From: a virus
IMG/VR virus record: IMGVR_UViG_3300045988_010248
Span: 1-42,801 of that record
Length of the DNA stretch: 42,801 bases
Strand: one strand, 5' to 3'
The translations under genes were made by a program, and so were the position numbers. Below are positions 26,881 through 34,417 of this stretch, one piece after another. Each line of letters begins with the position of its first letter. Positions within the stretch are counted from its first letter, which is position 1. The notes under the pieces are model-generated. The model was not told the DNA's origin, did no database searches, and was given only the letters and a program-made list of their open reading frames with translations.

Positions 26881-27167
26881 CAGGGTTTGGGTGACGCCTA
26901 TACAGCATAGCGGTGTGATGAGGTGCACCACAGGGCAACCCACAGATCATATGCCATATGTCGACAAGTGCCCAAAGCGCCCCACAGTTAACCCAATGCA
27001 CCCCAAAGGCACCACCTTCGGCTCAAACCTTGCAACACGGCGGGAAATCGGCGGCTGTCGTTCAAACGCGATGCGTGAGGCGATCATGAGGTGCCCCCAC
27101 GGGGGTAACGCACGCGATCTTTTATTAATGTGAGGGTTCATAAATTTGCTCCATTTTTTCAATCGGG

Positions 27168-27232
27168 GTTATCCACAGGACACCACAGCTAGCCTAGCTA
27201 GCACAGGCTTATCCACAGGCTTATCCACAGGA
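27168..27232. repeat. Short-repeat array (ttatccacagg x3, caccacagctagc x1)
   Basis: ttatccacagg occurs at 27169, 27209 and 27221. The last two form a 12-bp tandem. caccacagctagc occurs at 27181. Confidence 0.85.
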
Positions 27233-27282: not shown

Positions 27283-27520
27283 ATTACGTGACACACTATG
27301 GAAATCTTAAAGGGTAGAGTCAAAGACTCTATAAGGAACTCACAAGAGTCCTTAAGACAGCATCAATCATACTTAAGTCGCCATTCATCAATGACATGAT
27401 AAATAGGACAATGATGATGATTATCTTTATGGTGATAAACACCTTGCTAGTTGTACTAGCCTTGTTTTTAGTTCAATTCATCTATGTTCTTATTATTATA
27501 ATTGTTAATGATGTTCACCC

Positions 27521-27596
27521 CTATAAGGGATCTGTAGGACTCCTATAAGGGAACCCTAGGATCCCCATAAGGGAACTATAGTACACCTATAAGGGA
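27521..27596. repeat. Four copies of c(t/c)ataaggga phased exactly 22 bp apart
   Basis: Copies start at 27521, 27543, 27565 and 27587. The sequence between copies is not conserved. Confidence 0.85.
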
Positions 27597-27687
27597 CTAT
27601 AGTATACTGATACCTGATACCTTGATATATTGTCTTTAGAGGAGAGCTAGTGCATGAGCTACATACACCTATATATAACCTTTCTCA

Positions 27688-27813: not shown

Positions 27814-28317
27814 CTACTTAAGTTTGTACCCTGAAGTCTCTCTTTTGATTCCTTTAGTAGTGTTTCTAGAGCCAGTCTTAGTGTCTTCAGTAACGATTAT
27901 TCCACCGGTACCTACACGGCTAGTAACGAATCCATAGAAAGACTCCATAGACTCCTCTAACCACTCTTCAGTAAGTTCCTCAATTCCAGTGTCTGCATCG
28001 ACACCCATGAAGTCCACAAGGTACTTAACTCCGATTGCCAGAGCATCCAGACGGTCATCATGAACAAGGGCACCCCTGTCAGTAGTGATACGAGTAAGCT
28101 GATAAAAGCAAGCATATTTGTAATCCGATTCAGGGACTGTAGAGAAGTCATTCCTGATACATTCAGGCGTGACACACATTTTATGGTTAGAGATTACAGG
28201 TTCAAGAGTGTCGATGATTCGGAGTTCTTTTTGCCCTGAGGATTTAACTTCAGTTAATCCACAGTTAGGGTAAGTTTTCTTCAATACTGGCTCAAAGAGC
28301 TTAAGGTACATACCATC
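27814..28317 (-). CDS. Large terminase subunit, exon 3 (C-terminal nuclease part)
   Basis: Begins DGMYLKLFEPVL. ...FYQLTRITTDRGALVHDDRLDALAIGV parallels the T7 gp19 C-terminal region. 504 nt including the stop. Confidence 0.9.
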   Translation of the reverse strand, partial: DGMYLKLFEPVLKKTYPNCGLTEVKSSGQKELRIIDTLEPVISNHKMCVTPECIRNDFSTVPESDYKYACFYQLTRITTDRGALVHDDRLDALAIGVKYLVDFMGVDADTGIEELTEEWLEESMESFYGFVTSRVGTGGIIVTEDTKTGSRNTTKGIKRETSGYKLK

Positions 28318-29033
28318 CATTATGTTTACACAAGTTCGTTACGCTTATGCCATGGGGCTACACATTGCTGTGTAGATCGGACTATATCTTAACAATAGCT
28401 AATCTTCCAACCTCTTCTACCACGAATACCTTTATAGAGGAGGTTTCTTATGTTAGCTCTAGCAAATCCTAGAGCTTCTGCACATTCTTGTATTGAGTTA
28501 AACCTAAACTGTCTGCCGTCAAGGTGTTCTGCCAAGACACCTTTAGCGTTGTGGGCTACCTTACCGTATGCGTGGTTATTTTCACCCCACTGGTTCTCAA
28601 CACCCATGCCGCCCTCTTGAAGATTATAGGTATCTTGTCTAGAGGCAAATTCTTTATCTACCAGCAAGGACTCTACTTCTCTAGCTTCTTCCCTGTTGGA
28701 TAGGACTAACAGAACCTCTCTTTTAAAGTTTTCTCTACCGTACTTCTTTATAGCAGACTTAAGCACCCAACCACTACCTAAATATCCATCGTAAATATTA
28801 TCCGTAGAGTGTAGCCCTACGTATATTTTACCATTTATTAGGTTTGTTGTTTTATAGATTATATGAAATTTGTATTCGTGCATATTATTGTTATTTTAGC
28901 TATTGTTCCCACTTTTTCAGACCACTTGGTCTTACAATTAGTCTCTACACCTTCCTATTTCTAGGCTTGGCTCGGTATTGTCCCTGAGGGAGTTTCACCG
29001 AATTTAATGGGTTTTGTTTCGGCAATATGGTTT
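28318..29033 (-). mobile_element. Group I intron 2 (td-like, IA2-type) in the terminase gene
   Basis: The 5' exon TTCGGT pairs with the internal guide GCCGAA (U.G at the splice site). The intron ends ...ACATAATG. The core blocks AAATTCGGTG, GACAATACCGAGCC and AAGATATAGTCCG are shared with intron 1. The ORF lies between the GAAAAAGTGGG and GATATAGTC elements (P8 loop). Confidence 0.8.
28389..28883 (-). CDS. Intron-encoded GIY-YIG homing endonuclease
   Basis: 164 aa. IIYKTTNLINGKIYVGLH...YLGSG...GRENFKREVL matches the GIY-YIG module. The C-terminal FNSIQECAEALGFARANIRNLL region is helix-turn-helix-like. Confidence 0.85.
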   Translation of the reverse strand: MHEYKFHIIYKTTNLINGKIYVGLHSTDNIYDGYLGSGWVLKSAIKKYGRENFKREVLLVLSNREEAREVESLLVDKEFASRQDTYNLQEGGMGVENQWGENNHAYGKVAHNAKGVLAEHLDGRQFRFNSIQECAEALGFARANIRNLLYKGIRGRRGWKISYC

Positions 29034-29825
29034 ACCGAAGTTTCCTTCAATGACTACTTCATTGACTTTGTACTTCTTAGCTACCTTAGCTAACTTATTG
29101 AGAACTACATCTGAATAACCTCCTAAAAGACCCCCTACTTCCATGACGTAGATATACCCATTTAGGTAGTACAAGACTGCATAACCCGACTCATCACGTC
29201 CACGGCCCGACGGGTCTATACATAGGATCTTATGGGCATAGGGAACAACCTCATTGGATGAGGCATGATAGTAGAAGTAAGAGTCTCCCTTAAGGCCCAT
29301 CGTAGGACACTCGTCAACTGGAACCCTCTTAGAAGGCTCAGGGAGCCACGTGAGCTTCATCGGAGCCTCGTCTAAGGGGAACATACCTACGATGAGGTCA
29401 CGAAGCCGCAGAGGGTATTTATCGGCGTCTGAGAGGGTCGTATCAAGCATGAACTGCAGAGCGAAGCCTGCCTTACGATAAGATAGTTCACGCTTCTGTA
29501 GATCATCTTCAGAGAACCTAAGGGGGTCTGTAGGTTTACCTGCCCAATGTTTAGGATCCTTGTCGTACTTGTCAGCAATGATAGGGGCCAATCTATCGCC
29601 ATAGGAGGCTCTATGAGAGTCATCATAGGGGTACCTAGCGGGATAGATTACAGCCGTGTATCCGCGCTCCTGTAGCTCGTTATAGAGACTCATTTCATTC
29701 TGAGGGGTTCCCAGATACAGGATCTTCTTACCTGCACCTGGCTTTAGGACAGCGTCGAGCTCCTTCACGAGCTCGAATAGCTGATCCCTGAGCACCTGAG
29801 TAAATGAATTAGATGGAACTTCCAC
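29034..29825 (-). CDS. Large terminase subunit, exon 2
   Basis: Begins VEVPSNSFTQ...ILYLGTPQNEMSLYNEL and ends ...VVIEGNFG. 792 nt (264 codons). It parallels the T7 gp19 central region. Confidence 0.9.
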
Positions 29826-30605
29826 CTTTATGTTAAGGCAAGGGCGTTAGCCTTACCCCATCGTCTTTTATTTGAGTCCACTGCGTTTTCAGTAGCAGTA
29901 ACAAACTTACAATGATCCCTAGAGTAGAGTCCACAGTTGCCCTTCTTGATGTCCTTATCAAGGTGCATGCTAGAGTCCTTTTCCCATTCTTCATAGCCTT
30001 CTACCTCGTGAATAGTATTCAAGAAGGTAGTAAAGTTATGCCACCTAGGATCTACCTTACAGCCTACATAGCTAGTTTTGTAGTTACCATAAGCTCTCTT
30101 AAGCATGTTAGCCCACAGGTCATAGATCTTGCGGATGATACTATTAGAGCCTCTAGCAGGGATTCTAATAGGAGACCCAAGGAACCCTACACCATAGACC
30201 GTAGGTTCCATAAAGTCTTCAAACTTACCTGCCTTAATGTTGCAGGTCTGAACATCAATGACTGTACCAGTCTTGACAAACTGAATGACAGCCCTAGGAT
30301 GCTTAACTTTACCATTAGGAAGTTTCTGCTTCTTAGTTCTAGACAGGATCTTGATAAGGCCCTTAGGAGTTTCGTAAGTTTTGTTAATTTCGTACATAGT
30401 TATGTTCCTTATAATTGACGATGCTTCATATCTCTATGAAGACCAGACTATATCTTATACCAAAAGGTATCCCCATTTTTCGAGTCACTTGACCCTACAT
30501 AATAGTCGTTACACCTGCTAAATAGCTCGGCTCGGTATTGTCTTTCCTAGTTAGGACTGAGTTCCACCGAATTTAAGGGGTTTAGAGACGACATGGTTAA
30601 AGTTT
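29826..30605 (-). mobile_element. Group I intron 1 (td-like, IA2-type) in the terminase gene
   Basis: The 5' exon AGACGAT pairs with the internal guide GTCGTCT (U.G at the splice site). The intron ends ...ACATAAAG. The complete core (…GTAGGGTCAAGTGACTCGAAA…AAGATATAGTCTG…) precedes the ORF, which fills the 3' (P9) region. Confidence 0.8.
29828..30397 (-). CDS. Intron-encoded putative homing endonuclease (not GIY-YIG; family uncertain, HNH-associated type suspected)
   Basis: 189 aa with an AAGGAA RBS. VYGVGFLG...YDLWANMLKRAY...LDKDIKKGN..YSRDHCKFVTATEN resembles patterns I recall in phage HNH-type endonucleases, but no clean HNH motif is visible. The stop lies 2 nt before the 3' splice site. 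Confidence 0.5.
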   Translation of the reverse strand: MYEINKTYETPKGLIKILSRTKKQKLPNGKVKHPRAVIQFVKTGTVIDVQTCNIKAGKFEDFMEPTVYGVGFLGSPIRIPARGSNSIIRKIYDLWANMLKRAYGNYKTSYVGCKVDPRWHNFTTFLNTIHEVEGYEEWEKDSSMHLDKDIKKGNCGLYSRDHCKFVTATENAVDSNKRRWGKANALALT

Positions 30606-31088
30606 ATCGTCTGCGACAATGATGTCTGCACGGGAACCCGTAAGCTGACCTTTGATACCCACAGACTTAACTGAAGGCGAATGGTCGGGTTTAGCAGGGC
30701 CAACATCAAAAAGGTTCTGAGTGTCTCTCTGACCTTCACGAGCCTTCAGGTGATCCAAGAAAGGGAGTTCATTAATGATCTTCTTAATGAAGGTAGCATT
30801 AGCGTCAGCTCTTTCCTTATTAGCTGAGACAACCATAATCTTAGTCTGAGGGTCTCTCCAAAGACACCAAACCACGTAGGCACACGTAATGAATGACTTA
30901 GCTACCCCTCGGAAACCCATAAGGATCATACGGTCATTAGGGGGATCTTGGAGTAGCTTTGCAATATCAGACTGCAACGGCGTAGGAGACGGAAGACCAA
31001 TTGCACGCCACACAAGAGCAGTAAAGAGAGGAAAGCTCTCAAAATAAGGTAAAAGAAGCTCTGCTTCCTTAGTTGATGCTTGAGCCAT
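30606..31088 (-). CDS. Large terminase subunit, exon 1 (ATPase N-terminus)
   Basis: ATG at 31088 after [53 protein letters not shown]...[25 protein letters not shown] parallels T7 gp19. 483 nt (161 codons). Confidence 0.9.
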
Positions 31089-31523: not shown

Positions 31524-31921
31524 CAGCCACGCCTCATCAACCTCTCAAAGTTAGCCTTCTTAAAGTGATCACCCTTAAGGAGCTTACCATCTTCCCTATA
31601 GGTTGCACAGAAGTTACCTTCGTCATCCCACAGCTTGCTAGAATACTCCTTGATAAGCTCATTCATACCTACCTCAATGTCATAGCCACAGGCATTAGCA
31701 TACTGAACACAAACCCAAATGAGGTCGCAAAGTTCCTTAAAGTCCTCGTGGGTATTAGAATCCTCATCAAGGAGTTCATTGAACTCTTCACTGATGCACT
31801 TGCGATAAATAAGCTTAAGATCCGACTGGTCTCCCGAGTGGGTAATCTTGAACAAAACCTTCAGCTTCTCCTGAAGATCTCCAATAGACACGTTGGTTAC
31901 TCGATCCATAGTATTTTCCAT
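31523..31921 (-). CDS. MazG-like nucleotide pyrophosphohydrolase (putative)
   Basis: ATG at 31921 after AAAGGAAG. CISEEFNELLDE...FKELCDLIWVCVQYA fits the paired acidic-helix pattern of MazG-like proteins. It overlaps the nrdG 3' end by 107 nt. Confidence 0.6.
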   Translation of the reverse strand: MENTMDRVTNVSIGDLQEKLKVLFKITHSGDQSDLKLIYRKCISEEFNELLDEDSNTHEDFKELCDLIWVCVQYANACGYDIEVGMNELIKEYSSKLWDDEGNFCATYREDGKLLKGDHFKKANFERLMRRG

Positions 31922-32321
31922 TACATTTCTTCCTTTCAATAAACGGTTCTGTGATCAGCACATCCACATACTTAAGGAGTGCTAGATCTTTAATTTGTTC
32001 GTACTTTCTACCTGTCCACAACCAAATGGTCTTGGTAGGACACAACTGCTTCACCAGAGCTACTATATAGCTCACTGTGGGAATGTTATATGCCTCCAAG
32101 GGGTCACCCCCAAGGATACTCAGTCCATTGATCCACGGGCTTCTGAGAGCCTCCAAGAGGGTATCCATAGTCTCCTCAGTGAACTCCTTACCATAGTTCT
32201 TATCCCAAGCATCCTTGTTGAAACACCCCTTGCAATGGAGAGAGCATCCTGAGACAAACAAGGATACTCTCAGTCCATCACCATTAGTTGAATCACAGGT
32301 ATTCAAACCTGAATAATTCAT
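31815..32321 (-). CDS. nrdG: Anaerobic ribonucleotide reductase activating protein (radical SAM)
   Basis: 168 aa. The cluster CSLHCKGCFN (CxxxCxxC) follows DSTNGDGLRVSLFVSGC. Confidence 0.9.
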   Translation of the reverse strand: MNYSGLNTCDSTNGDGLRVSLFVSGCSLHCKGCFNKDAWDKNYGKEFTEETMDTLLEALRSPWINGLSILGGDPLEAYNIPTVSYIVALVKQLCPTKTIWLWTGRKYEQIKDLALLKYVDVLITEPFIERKKCNGKYYGSSNQRVYWRSSGEAEGFVQDYPLGRPVGS

Positions 32322-34417
32322 TACATGCTCTTCCTGTCTTTGATCTCTGCCATCTTGGCGTCATTCATTCGGGTCTTTCCATTGACATTACTGTAACCCA
32401 AGTACCCACAAACACGAGAAATAATAGAGAGGTTGTGAGACCCACAATGAGGACAGGTGTTACCAACATTAGTGCTATGCCTGCCACAATCCTCGCAATA
32501 AGCCGCATCAAAGTTGACACCTTGGTAGAAACCCATCGACATGCCTCTCTGAACAAGGGCTTTAACTGCATTGACCTTATCAGGGTTATCCACTCGTACA
32601 TACTGAATGTGACCCCCATTACACTTGTGAAAAAGTTCATATTCCTTATTCTGCTTCTCAAAAGGGGTTACATCTTCACTAACGTGGAGGTGAAAGGAGT
32701 TCGTGAAGTAATCTCCGAAGCGATTGTCTCCTGTATATTCATGGTATTGTCTAGCTTGAGTCCCACACAGAGATTCTGCAGGAGTACCATAAAGAGCATA
32801 AAGGTAGCCATCTTCTTTCTTAAATTCCTCAATCTTTTCGTTAATAAAATCAACAACAGTATTAGCAAAGCAGCTAGACTCTTTCAAAGTCTTGCCAGTA
32901 GCTAGGATAGACAACTCATTCAATGCAGTGATTCCAAAGGATGCAGTCATGTATTCTACAAGATCCCCAATCTCATCATCAGGATTCAAGTAGCCATTGT
33001 AAAGACCACCCTGAGTGAAACACATGGGGTTAGTACAAGCCTTAGTGTGACGAATCATGTCGTAACGTTTCTTAAGGAACTCACGGATGACCTGCATTCT
33101 ATCCTCAAGCACAACAAAGAAGTCTTCGCCTTCATTCTCAGCAACCTTCCAAATCAACGGAAGATTAAGAGAAACAGCACCAATGTTACAACGACCGATA
33201 GTAATGGCTTCGTTTGTCTTAGGGTCATGCCACTCAGTGAGATATGCACGGCAACCCATAGGGCTCGTGATAGCACCAGTGCGCTGATAGATATCGCCCA
33301 CCTTGCCATGGTTCAAGCTAAGGTAGTCAGGGTACATACACTTACTAGAACATTCCACAGCCTTATGGAAGAGTTCCTCATGATCCTCATCAGCTTCAAT
33401 CTTATCTTCATCATAGAGGAAGACGAGCTTGGGGAAGACAACTTGCTTACCACCATGGCCCTTCATACGGGTATCGAGGATAACTTCACCGATCAGCTTC
33501 ATGATGTCTCTGTCAAGATCATCCATCATGATGTCCCAAGTACCAAAAGTAAGCGTAGTAAACGCAAAGTCACCACGAGAACACGGGACAGTATTCAACT
33601 TCAACTCAAGAGACTGGAATCCCTGCTCAAGTTCACGCTTGAGATCCCCCATAGCCATTACATAGGATTCATTATACTCCATATTGCATTGTTCGAAATA
33701 CTTCCTAAAGGCGTTATCGTAGGTCTTCTCAGCATACGGAAGGAGAACCTTGTCGATCTCTGCAATGGTAAAACCGCCGAACTGCTGTGCAGTAGCTACA
33801 AGAGTAATGTCGCCGATAACCTGAAGGGCACTAAGGACACTCGTAGGTTCAGTGTACTTCACATTAGACATCTCAAAGCCACCCTTAAGGACATTGCCAA
33901 TGTCAAAGAGACAACAATTGAATGAATTAAAGATCATGTCTCTAAGGTCGTGGATGTAGATGTCACCACGCTTAACAAGCTCCTTCTCTTTCTTAGAAAG
34001 GTAGAACTGCTTGAACAATTCCTTAGTGAGGTACCCCTTAATGAGAGAACCCTTAGTAGAGATGAGGGAGCTATCAAAGTTAGCATTCTCACGGTCTCCC
34101 AAGAGAAGCGCCGTATCAGCTTCACTCTTGACAGACTCAAAGGCTTTAGCATAGGTGTTCTTGTAATCTCGATATTCCTGATAAGCCTTGCCTACTTCAG
34201 GGAGATATCTGTTAAGAGCATCAATAACGTGGTCATGAAGAGCCTCAGTAGTGACTTCAGTCTTGTGATAAAGGATGCCCTCGATGTAACCTTCGATCTG
34301 CCAAAGCTTCCATTCAGGATACTTAGCATTAGCTCTCTTAGTAGCCTTATCAATAGCTACCTTGATCTTATCAAAGCACCAGTCTTCACGAGTGCCGTCT
34401 TTCTTAATAACGTTCAT
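32321..34417 (-). CDS. nrdD: Anaerobic ribonucleoside-triphosphate reductase (class III)
   Basis: 698 aa. It has a C-terminal Zn site CEDCG...CPHCG, followed by the glycyl-radical motif SRVCGYLGY. Confidence 0.95.
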   Translation of the reverse strand: MNVIKKDGTREDWCFDKIKVAIDKATKRANAKYPEWKLWQIEGYIEGILYHKTEVTTEALHDHVIDALNRYLPEVGKAYQEYRDYKNTYAKAFESVKSEADTALLLGDRENANFDSSLISTKGSLIKGYLTKELFKQFYLSKKEKELVKRGDIYIHDLRDMIFNSFNCCLFDIGNVLKGGFEMSNVKYTEPTSVLSALQVIGDITLVATAQQFGGFTIAEIDKVLLPYAEKTYDNAFRKYFEQCNMEYNESYVMAMGDLKRELEQGFQSLELKLNTVPCSRGDFAFTTLTFGTWDIMMDDLDRDIMKLIGEVILDTRMKGHGGKQVVFPKLVFLYDEDKIEADEDHEELFHKAVECSSKCMYPDYLSLNHGKVGDIYQRTGAITSPMGCRAYLTEWHDPKTNEAITIGRCNIGAVSLNLPLIWKVAENEGEDFFVVLEDRMQVIREFLKKRYDMIRHTKACTNPMCFTQGGLYNGYLNPDDEIGDLVEYMTASFGITALNELSILATGKTLKESSCFANTVVDFINEKIEEFKKEDGYLYALYGTPAESLCGTQARQYHEYTGDNRFGDYFTNSFHLHVSEDVTPFEKQNKEYELFHKCNGGHIQYVRVDNPDKVNAVKALVQRGMSMGFYQGVNFDAAYCEDCGRHSTNVGNTCPHCGSHNLSIISRVCGYLGYSNVNGKTRMNDAKMAEIKDRKSM

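Follow-up and report, generated by a model that had tools for sequence, protein, structure and literature searches.

The contig IMGVR_UViG_3300045988_010248 of IMG/VR (42,801 nt, analysed over its full length and called the window below) is the circularly permuted genome of an uncultured T7-like phage from the gut. The gene for its large terminase subunit (TerL), on the minus strand, is interrupted by two inserts, A and B (Table 1). We conclude, with a probability of about 85%, that these inserts are two mobile group I introns of one widespread phage family, and that they represent old site-specific lineages which entered the gene separately. The conclusion is built on the anatomy of the inserts, the homology of their ribozymes, covariation in the shared helices, polymorphism in the population of related phages and co-conversion of flanking exon sequence.

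The interrupted terminase gene and its introns

Joining the junctions GACGAT/GTGG and TTCGGT/GATGG yields a continuous TerL of 592 amino acids (aa), which aligns over residues 1-592 with the product of an uninterrupted gene in MT835695.1 (91% identity); the nucleotide alignment to MT835695.1 crosses both exon junctions unbroken. Since the spliced product is collinear with this uninterrupted TerL, the inserts extend from 30605 to 29826 and from 29033 to 28318. A preliminary description of this DNA had given the outer limits exactly: on the minus strand, 30605 is the first base of the upstream intron and 28318 the last base (omega-G) of the downstream one. The full splice-site contexts are GACGAT-intron A-AAAG/GTGG and TTCGGT-intron B-TAATG/GATGG, the introns thus ending in ...AAAG and ...AAUG. 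Read on from the exon, the frame meets a stop at the third codon of intron A (K-L-stop) and at the tenth codon of intron B. The A-D-D codons just 5' of site A encode what we take to be the Walker B motif of the ATPase. Inteins were considered and ruled out, as the open reading frames (ORFs) of the inserts are out of frame with TerL and the exon frame stops within 3-10 codons.

Table 1. Positions of the TerL exons, introns, ribozyme parts and intron ORFs in the window.
Feature	Positions	Strand	Description
TerL exon 1	30606..31088	-	161 codons; ATG at 31088 after GAGGAGG; last codons GCA GAC GAT (A-D-D)
Intron A	29826..30605	-	780 nt, group I, phase 0, directly 3' of GACGAU
Intron A internal guide	30587..30596	-	CCAU (P10) then GUCGUC (P1); pairing predicted from sequence
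Intron A ribozyme core	30424..30580	-	P3, P4, P5/P5a, P6/P6a, P7, P7.2, P8, P9; from Rfam alignment, covariation and folds
Intron A ORF	29828..30397	-	189 aa, putative homing endonuclease in the P9.1 loop, 3' of P9
Intron A P9.1 3' strand and P9.2	29836..29865	-	P9.1 GACGAUG; P9.2 GGGUAAGG/CCUUGCCU, loop CUAACGC
TerL exon 2	29034..29825	-	264 codons; VEVPSNS...VIEGNFG
Intron B	28318..29033	-	716 nt, group I, phase 0, directly 3' of UUCGGU
Intron B internal guide	29018..29027	-	UAUU (P10) then GCCGAA (P1); pairing predicted from sequence
Intron B 5' core	28896..29011	-	P3, P4, P5, P6/P6a, P7 5' strand, P7.2, P3', P8 5' strand (AACAAUAGCUAA)
Intron B ORF	28389..28883	-	164 aa, putative GIY-YIG homing endonuclease with NUMOD-like C-terminal region, in the P8 loop
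Intron B 3' core	28328..28402	-	P8 3' strand (UUAGCUAUUGUU), J8/7 and P7 3' strand (AAGAUAUAGUC), P9, P9.2
TerL exon 3	27814..28317	-	167 codons and stop; DGMYLKLFEP...

Both introns contain a predicted internal guide. In intron A, GUCGUC would pair with the exon sequence GACGAU to form P1, with a U.G wobble at the splice site, and CCAU with GUGG at the start of exon 2 to form P10. The corresponding pairings of intron B would be GCCGAA with UUCGGU and UAUU with the GAUG that opens exon 3. The core of intron A has neither P2 nor P7.1; its P8 is AUACC-UUUU-GGUAU and the P9 loop is GAGA. The 3' strand of P9.1 (GACGAUG) pairs with CAUCGUC at 30423-30417, and the helix encloses the ORF. In the ORF-less site-A intron of a related locus (L070), P9.1 is a simple hairpin, CAUCGUC-AAUUAUAAA-GACGAUG. 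Intron B contains the hairpins P5 (UCCC-UCA-GGGA), P6a (with a GAAA loop), P7.2 (AGACC-AAGU-GGUCU) and P9 (CUACACA-GCAA-UGUGUAG); its P9.2 is GCAUAAG/CUUGUGU, relative to which P9.2 of intron A shows two compensatory pairs. We use 'P7.2' for the single hairpin between P7 and P3'. The Rfam model RF00028 aligns to both introns, with 43.4 bits (E 5e-9) for A and 52.1 bits for B, the latter over the gathering score of 50; an ORF-less relative of intron B (L061) reaches 73.5 bits. The same search matched no further group I intron elsewhere in the window.

Shared ribozyme core and unrelated endonuclease genes

The two inserts match each other (blastn) in three collinear blocks of 83/118 (E 6e-9), 27/35 and 25/34 identical positions, of which the second spans P7'/P9 and the third lies at the 3' end. 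All core blocks listed in the preliminary description are present in both inserts, at a similarity above chance; the 3' block is an addition to that list. Without their ORFs the cores are ∼ 71-75% identical (75% from P3 to P9), and the guide and P1 loop regions differ (11/22 matches). Common to both are the absence of P2, a contiguous guide, the terminal G, helices P3-P9, a P7.2 with an AAGU loop, a GNRA loop on P9 and a 3' hairpin, P9.2, with a UAACG-containing loop.

Covariation was assessed in a MAFFT alignment of ORF-less versions of seven distinct A-type and six distinct B-type introns from the window and related contigs. The 39 pairs in register (P3, P4, P6, P7, P7.2, P9, P9.2) entered the formal pair counts; P5, P6a and P8, which differ in length and were not structurally aligned by MAFFT, were left out of the counts and folded segment by segment. 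Across the 13 sequences 96.4% of cells are paired, versus 28-44% when the partners are slid by 1-3 columns. Nine pairs are changed on both sides, and the covariation score was reached by 0/500 shuffles. RNAalifold, run without a supplied structure, recovers P3, P4, P6, P7.2, P9 and P9.2 with ten doubly changed pairs. When the window introns alone are compared (41 pairs), 30 pairs are identical, one shows a one-sided change and eight show two-sided changes (8/8 still paired); one of the remaining two is unpaired in A only, the other in B only. The clean compensatory changes sit in P3, P7.2, P9 and P9.2, and P5, P6a and P8 each fold as the expected hairpins in both introns. Variation within each type follows the same pattern: P8 of A-type introns is AUACC/GGUAU, AUGCUC/GAGCAU or GUGCUC/GAGCAC, and P7.2 of B-type introns has AGACC, AGGCC, AGAUC or AGGGC, each with a matching partner.

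A common group I core, as proposed in the preliminary description, is thus backed by covariation. The P5 and P6 hairpins which it had cited are real, but they are the weakest cases, and the 2-nt loops as written are impossible. In intron A these hairpins actually fold as UCCU-AACU-AGGA and GCU-AUUU-AGC, and the 'P5' hairpin is P5a, which extends a P5 of only two pairs (UC/GA), P5 itself being the same in both introns. The intron family resembles subgroup IA; it has no P2, and only one hairpin separates P7 from P3'. Subgroup IA2 (T4 td-like) was reportedly defined by Michel and Westhof in 1990 by two extra hairpins, P7.1 and P7.2, at this position. Two hairpins are found in the related introns of Klebsiella phage vB_Kp_Z1 (Z1 below) and locus L186 and in the site-D and site-E introns described below. 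Because A and B have only one, we class them as a P7.1-less derivative of an IA2-like family and not as members of IA2.

The ORFs occupy different peripheral loops of this core. In intron A the reading frame ends in the 3' P9 region as previously described, with a TAA stop followed by AG and the splice site (2 nt); the P9.1 3' strand, P9.2 and the tail downstream of P9.2 supply its last 13 codons and the stop. The product matches only PHROGs annotated as HNH, namely phrog_2081 (E 7e-40), 953 and 374, and is 44% identical (tblastn; 45% in a MAFFT alignment) to the annotated HNH gene product of the site-A intron in Z1. The GIY-YIG ORF of intron B lies between the two P8 strands, also as described, with its last five codons within the P8 3' strand and a stop codon that spans the last base of the strand and the start of J8/7. 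It matches phrog_314 'homing endonuclease' (E 1.8e-34), contains the motifs IIY...(I)YVG followed by Arg, Glu and Asn, and is 59% identical (aa) to its counterpart in the site-B intron of L186. The ORFs of A and B are unrelated (blastp only E >= 0.67), and variants with absent or decayed ORFs occur at both sites. The modularity of ribozyme and endonuclease gene put forward in the preliminary description is therefore well founded, and its broader point stands: homologous ribozymes hold, in different loops, endonuclease genes that were acquired independently.

The P9.1 3' strand of intron A and the bases that follow it (AGACGAUGGGG, 29855-29865) match the ligated exon junction AGACGAU/GUGG (30612-30606 / 29825-29822) at 10/11 positions, just 3' of the ORF insertion point. 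This recalls an idea attributed to Loizos and Belfort, that endonuclease genes invade introns at pseudo-target sites. The match may be due to chance, since it is not conserved in Z1 or in the site-E intron.

Distribution, predicted homing and origin of the introns

An IMG/VR search for related TerL genes gave 80 loci, which with two GenBank scaffolds make 82; 46 of these have no insert and 36 have at least one. Five sites are occupied: A (161/162), D (181/182), C (370/371), B (425/426) and E (after HDD). Site A is occupied by the same intron as in the window in 16 other loci, and site B in eight loci of this first set and in 18 stretches of a B-specific scan. Over more than 90 related loci the number of introns per TerL ranges from 0 to 3. 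The combinations include A+B, A+E (L081), C+B (L080/L170), A+C+B (L211 and L220, contigs 3300045988_015623 and _090907) and D+C+B (L213, contig 3300045988_011348). The A+B layout of the window recurs in five other contigs of the B-specific scan (L206, L208, L209, L214, L215) from at least two samples, so the arrangement is reproducible across assemblies and samples.

A search for intron-less, single-intron and ORF-less variants, as suggested in the preliminary description, found all of these among the related contigs. ORF-less introns occur at site A (L070, 238 nt; L214) and at site B (L061, 215 nt, with P8 reduced to AACAAU-AGCU-AUUGUU), and four site-B introns carry different internal deletions of the GIY-YIG gene. 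The ORF-less forms look like recent secondary deletions and not like ancestral states, because the core of L070 equals that of the ORF-bearing L048, L062-64 and L080 keep ORF remnants, and the deletions end at short direct repeats. The site-C intron (L057:4099-4886; L058-60, L078-80) appears to lack P8, its P3' strand AGGGGU being followed immediately by GAAAA and the P7 3' strand. The homologous intron of phage K1E has a P8 (AGGC-GCAA-GCCU), and a P8-less group I core would be unusual if spliced.

Alleles with only 73% identity in the protein encoded by exons 2-3 have introns A of 91-98% identity. Compared with the window, positions +1..+60 of exon 2 show 90-93% identity in divergent alleles that carry the intron, versus 62-78% in intron-less alleles (gapped alignments; the intron-less range includes an allele that is 93% identical overall). 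This 60-nt flank pattern 3' of site A is the expected co-conversion signature of homing. The flank of site B gave no clear co-conversion signal.

A mechanism consistent with these data would run as follows. Each intron would fold on the pre-mRNA, its guide pairing with the last six exon bases (GACGAU-GUCGUC in A, UUCGGU-GCCGAA in B), and exogenous guanosine bound at P7 would attack 3' of the wobble-paired U. The terminal G of the intron would then take the guanosine site while P10 aligns the next exon, and joining of the exons would give the 592-aa TerL. Each intron would carry its own site-specific endonuclease gene in a loop dispensable for catalysis. In a mixed infection the enzyme would cut intron-less TerL, and repair would copy the intron together with some flanking exon (homing). 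Because both introns are in phase 0, loss of exon 2 during splicing would fuse exon 1 to exon 3 in frame (328 aa), and CCAU, the P10 guide of intron A, has a second potential partner in AUGG (positions 2-5 of exon 3). Such skipping of an exon has been documented in Twort orf142 and the SIOphi TerL (PMC11878797).

Several points weigh against this picture. Intron A, at 43.4 bits, is under the Rfam gathering threshold, and its P3 contains one U-U mismatch. At that threshold, B-type and E-type introns of representative loci were matched and A, C and D types were not, and the ORF-less A-type intron of L070 also scores under it. Splicing and endonuclease activity are both inferred from sequence. 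The ORF of intron A gave no sequence match in Pfam, NCBIfam or the PDB (the last searched with the single ORF and a three-sequence profile), and an alignment with its two closest homologues shows no conservation of the His that an HNH active site should contain: LDKD...YS..C.F....N is invariant across the three sequences, and LDKD is preceded by H, A or D. The nuclease class of this ORF is thus only putative, and so, strictly, is its activity. The ORF of intron B falls under the curated cutoffs of Pfam GIY-YIG (18.5 bits versus 22.6), SegE_GIY-YIG (21.5 versus 25) and TIGR01453 'group I intron endonuclease' (47.4 versus 56), and the I-HmuI_NUMOD-like match is under its curated cutoff as well. 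The neighbour comparisons used below rest on short segments (∼ 130-170 nt), identity distances and a sample limited to ∼ 120 introns, which leave the branching of A, B and C unordered.

The preliminary description had explained the likeness of A and B by duplication or transposition within this gene lineage, followed by endonuclease invasion. This is not supported, as both site lineages occur in distant TerL. A site-A intron with a homologous ORF (44% aa) is found in the cultured phage Z1, whose TerL is only 31-36% identical, and L186 carries a site-B intron with a GIY-YIG ORF (59% aa) in P8 of a TerL that is only ∼ 42% identical. Because each lineage is already tied to its own endonuclease gene and site in TerL genes of 31-42% identity, the A and B lineages should be far older than this genome, and their split predates the clade. 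A copy of one intron at a second site of the TerL lineage, with each copy then invaded by a different endonuclease gene, would account for the unrelated genes in different loops, for an A-B identity (75%, P3-P9) as high as that between A and the same-site intron of Z1 (75%), and for the lack of P7.1 in introns A, B and C of this clade. P7.1 is also missing from the K1E intron and is present in the same-site relatives Z1 (site A) and L186 (site B), a pattern that reflects either repeated loss or exchange of core segments between introns. Against such a copy, the guide sequences and P1 loops of A and B differ, and in the P3-P7 segment B is nearer to L186 (81%) than to A, and A nearer to L176 (77%) than to B. 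We therefore regard within-lineage duplication as improbable; separate acquisition of A and B by homing is the most likely history of this genome on the sequences compared.

The neighbour sample comprised ∼ 120 phage introns with a shared P4 motif. Over the whole core, A and B score 88 against each other and most of the sampled introns 40-70; one neighbour (L176) outscores B in comparison with A, and the best outside neighbours of B reach 102-103 versus 88 for A. In the P3-P7 segment neither window intron is among the 12 nearest of the other, those of B (led by L186) being all at least 75% and those of A (led by L176) all at least 68% identical. Each window intron has a sampled relative as close as, or closer than, its partner. 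L176 (IMGVR_UViG_3300012308_000002), a contig of 140 kb, has an intron without ORF in its gene for a family A DNA polymerase. From P7 through P7.2 to P3' this intron is nearly the same as intron A, and P5 and P6a differ. This likeness suggests that core segments are shared across genes and phage types.

Such neighbours raise the question whether the likeness of A and B is only the generic conservation of phage group I cores, so that the two would be no closer than any two subgroup-IA introns. At least 120 stretches in viral contigs of widely different kinds, jumbo phages included, contain the P4 motif (AATTCGGTG...AATACCGAGC), AAGATATAGTC and GACTA are Rfam consensus residues, and Staphylococcus, Pseudomonas and Campylobacter phages give 68-78% blastn matches. 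The mutual score of 88 is nevertheless above that of most sampled introns, and A and B have in common traits outside the consensus: the absence of P2 and P7.1, the AAGU loop, the GNRA loops of P9, the P9.2 hairpin with its UAACG loop and the 3' end ...AACAUAA(A/U)G. Exact matches to this 3' tail (regular expression) were confined to the A and B families among the sampled introns; the tail is not unique to them, since looser versions (GGUUAGG-AGUAACGAA-CCUAAUC) were seen by eye in L176 and L132. Mere generic conservation consequently strikes us as an unlikely explanation. That the inserts are an assembly artefact, or are not introns at all but free-standing endonuclease genes with TerL translated in pieces, has almost nothing to commend it beyond the database entries of relatives, which list the pieces as separate 'terminase large subunit' coding sequences. 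The inserts are only ∼ 71-75% identical over their cores and sit at precise codon boundaries, and the A+B layout in at least five other contigs excludes an artefact. Both inserts contain complete, covarying ribozyme cores, the exon fragments would have no start signals of their own, and translation in pieces would split the ATPase and nuclease folds.

The introns at sites A and E are a better candidate than A and B for transposition within TerL, to judge from their sequences. The site-E introns (L036:4504-5261 and L081:5284-6041) share with intron A (window 29826-30605) the hexamer that ends the 5' exon (GACGAU) and the guide (GUCGUC), and the P1 loops are similar (16/22). The ORFs at the two sites are homologous (33% aa) and enclosed by P9.1, which covaries (CAUCGUC/GACGAUG in A, CAUCAAC/GUUGAUG for site E, CAUCUCUU/AAGAGGUG in Z1). 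The DNA targets are otherwise little alike, the site E of the window itself is GAUGAC and unoccupied, and the core of intron A is nearer to intron B (75%) than to the site-E intron (67%). These patterns, together with the distribution of P7.1, hint at ectopic transposition and at shuffling of modules: the family might spread in TerL by RNA-guided ectopic insertion (reverse splicing), with parts reshuffled between co-resident introns. We hold this to be unlikely. Reverse splicing is backed only circumstantially, from ribosomal DNA (review PMC3984707), and the A/E pair offers a test case in a protein-coding gene.

Genome context and comparison with known systems

Besides TerL, the minus strand encodes a single-subunit RNA polymerase, a T7-type primase-helicase, a family A DNA polymerase, portal, a gp10A-like capsid protein, nozzle and tail fibre. 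The closest database relatives of the window are uncultured human-faecal phage scaffolds and IMG/VR contigs of ∼ 42 kb. Between the tail-fibre and terminase genes, 31815-34417 (-) holds a 698-aa and a 168-aa ORF that by eye resemble the anaerobic ribonucleotide reductase NrdD and its activase NrdG, which would be an unusual cargo, in an unusual position, for a T7-like genome. A four-unit array with a period of ∼ 22 nt (27519-27612 (+); units contain CCTATAAGGGA or CCCATAAGGGA) lies shortly downstream of TerL, where no convincing ORFs are seen. It may be close to the physical end of the genome, or may represent a promoter or repeat array like those beside the T7 terminal repeats. Three copies of GG(G/C)TTATCCACAGG lie within 67 bp (27166-27232 (+)) of the non-coding DNA that separates the RNA polymerase gene from the 3' end of TerL; TTATCCACA is the DnaA-box consensus.

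A TerL gene in three ORFs with two endonuclease ORFs between them is easily mis-annotated. As TerL is the standard marker by which tailed phages are found and classified in viromes, an abundant T7-like clade of the gut with introns at five TerL sites will yield fragmented gene calls and trees. Every stage of the homing cycle is represented among the related contigs (empty site, intact gene, decayed gene, ORF-less intron, double and triple occupancy), which could serve as a natural series for work on the population dynamics of introns and endonucleases and on how targets at catalytic motifs are chosen. The understanding of how group I introns work is unchanged by these findings.

TerL genes of T7-like phages are likewise split by an endonuclease-bearing intron in the cultured Escherichia phage K1E (genes 40A / 40.5 / 40B) and in Lelliottia phage phD2B (PMC4246154). 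Over 143 nt the K1E ribozyme and intron B are 77% identical, and P7.1 is absent from both; by eye, the K1E ORF is similar to the ORF of this clade's site-C intron, the C-terminal motif being nearly the same. K1E differs in having a single intron per gene, located near site C (after IDPAG) and not at site A or B, and in its endonuclease gene, which is 3' of P9 and not in P8 as in intron B; the loop that carries the ORF thus varies at nearby sites. An intron near site C is also present in phD2B and in Salmonella, Klebsiella and Vibrio podophages. A split TerL was described in 2014 as uncommon in Autographiviridae and then known only from K1E (PMC4246154). Our literature search found no report of a two- or three-intron TerL, or of a five-site series, in T7-like phages.

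The closest counterpart of intron A is the intron of Z1, a type also found in RCIP0053, RCIP0089 and the Edwardsiella phages vB_EtA_*, with TerL proteins 31-36% identical to that of the window. It is inserted at the same point (LADD/), starts with AAACTTTAAC.ATGTCGTC, and has the guide GUCGUC, an extended P5 and the homologous ORF 3' of P9 in the P9.1 loop. Unlike intron A it has both P7.1 and P7.2, and the sequences of P6a, P8 and P9.1 differ, those of P9.1 with covariation. The database annotation of vB_Kp_Z1 lists two TerL coding sequences and an 'HNH endonuclease', and no intron.

Introns in terminase genes have long been known (phage LL-H, cited in PMC9610469; review PMC3984707). Bastillevirinae and Twort-like phages likewise carry 2-3 group I introns per essential gene (TerL, DNA polymerase, Twort orf142). 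In Bastillevirinae these belong with mixed endonuclease families, splicing and exon skipping were shown experimentally, and the phrog_2081 family is intron-encoded in polymerase genes (PMC11878797). These are myoviruses of Gram-positive hosts with unrelated TerL genes and other insertion sites, and the studies include no T7-like phage and no population series of presence, absence and decay.

The T4 td, nrdB and nrdD introns and the HMU introns combine related subgroup-IA ribozymes with unrelated GIY-YIG or HNH genes in different peripheral loops, and are the classic evidence for separable ribozyme and endonuclease modules. Goodrich-Blair and Shub are said to have described the HMU-phage DNA polymerase introns in 1994 as 'similar introns with highly divergent ORFs'; the paper is in the reference list of PMC10580990. 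The TerL introns of the window are a clean example of this already known kind of selfish element and not a new kind of system. They differ from the T4 case in that T4 has three introns in three genes and the present phage two (its relatives up to three) in one gene, and in that the core of A and B contains neither P2 nor P7.1.

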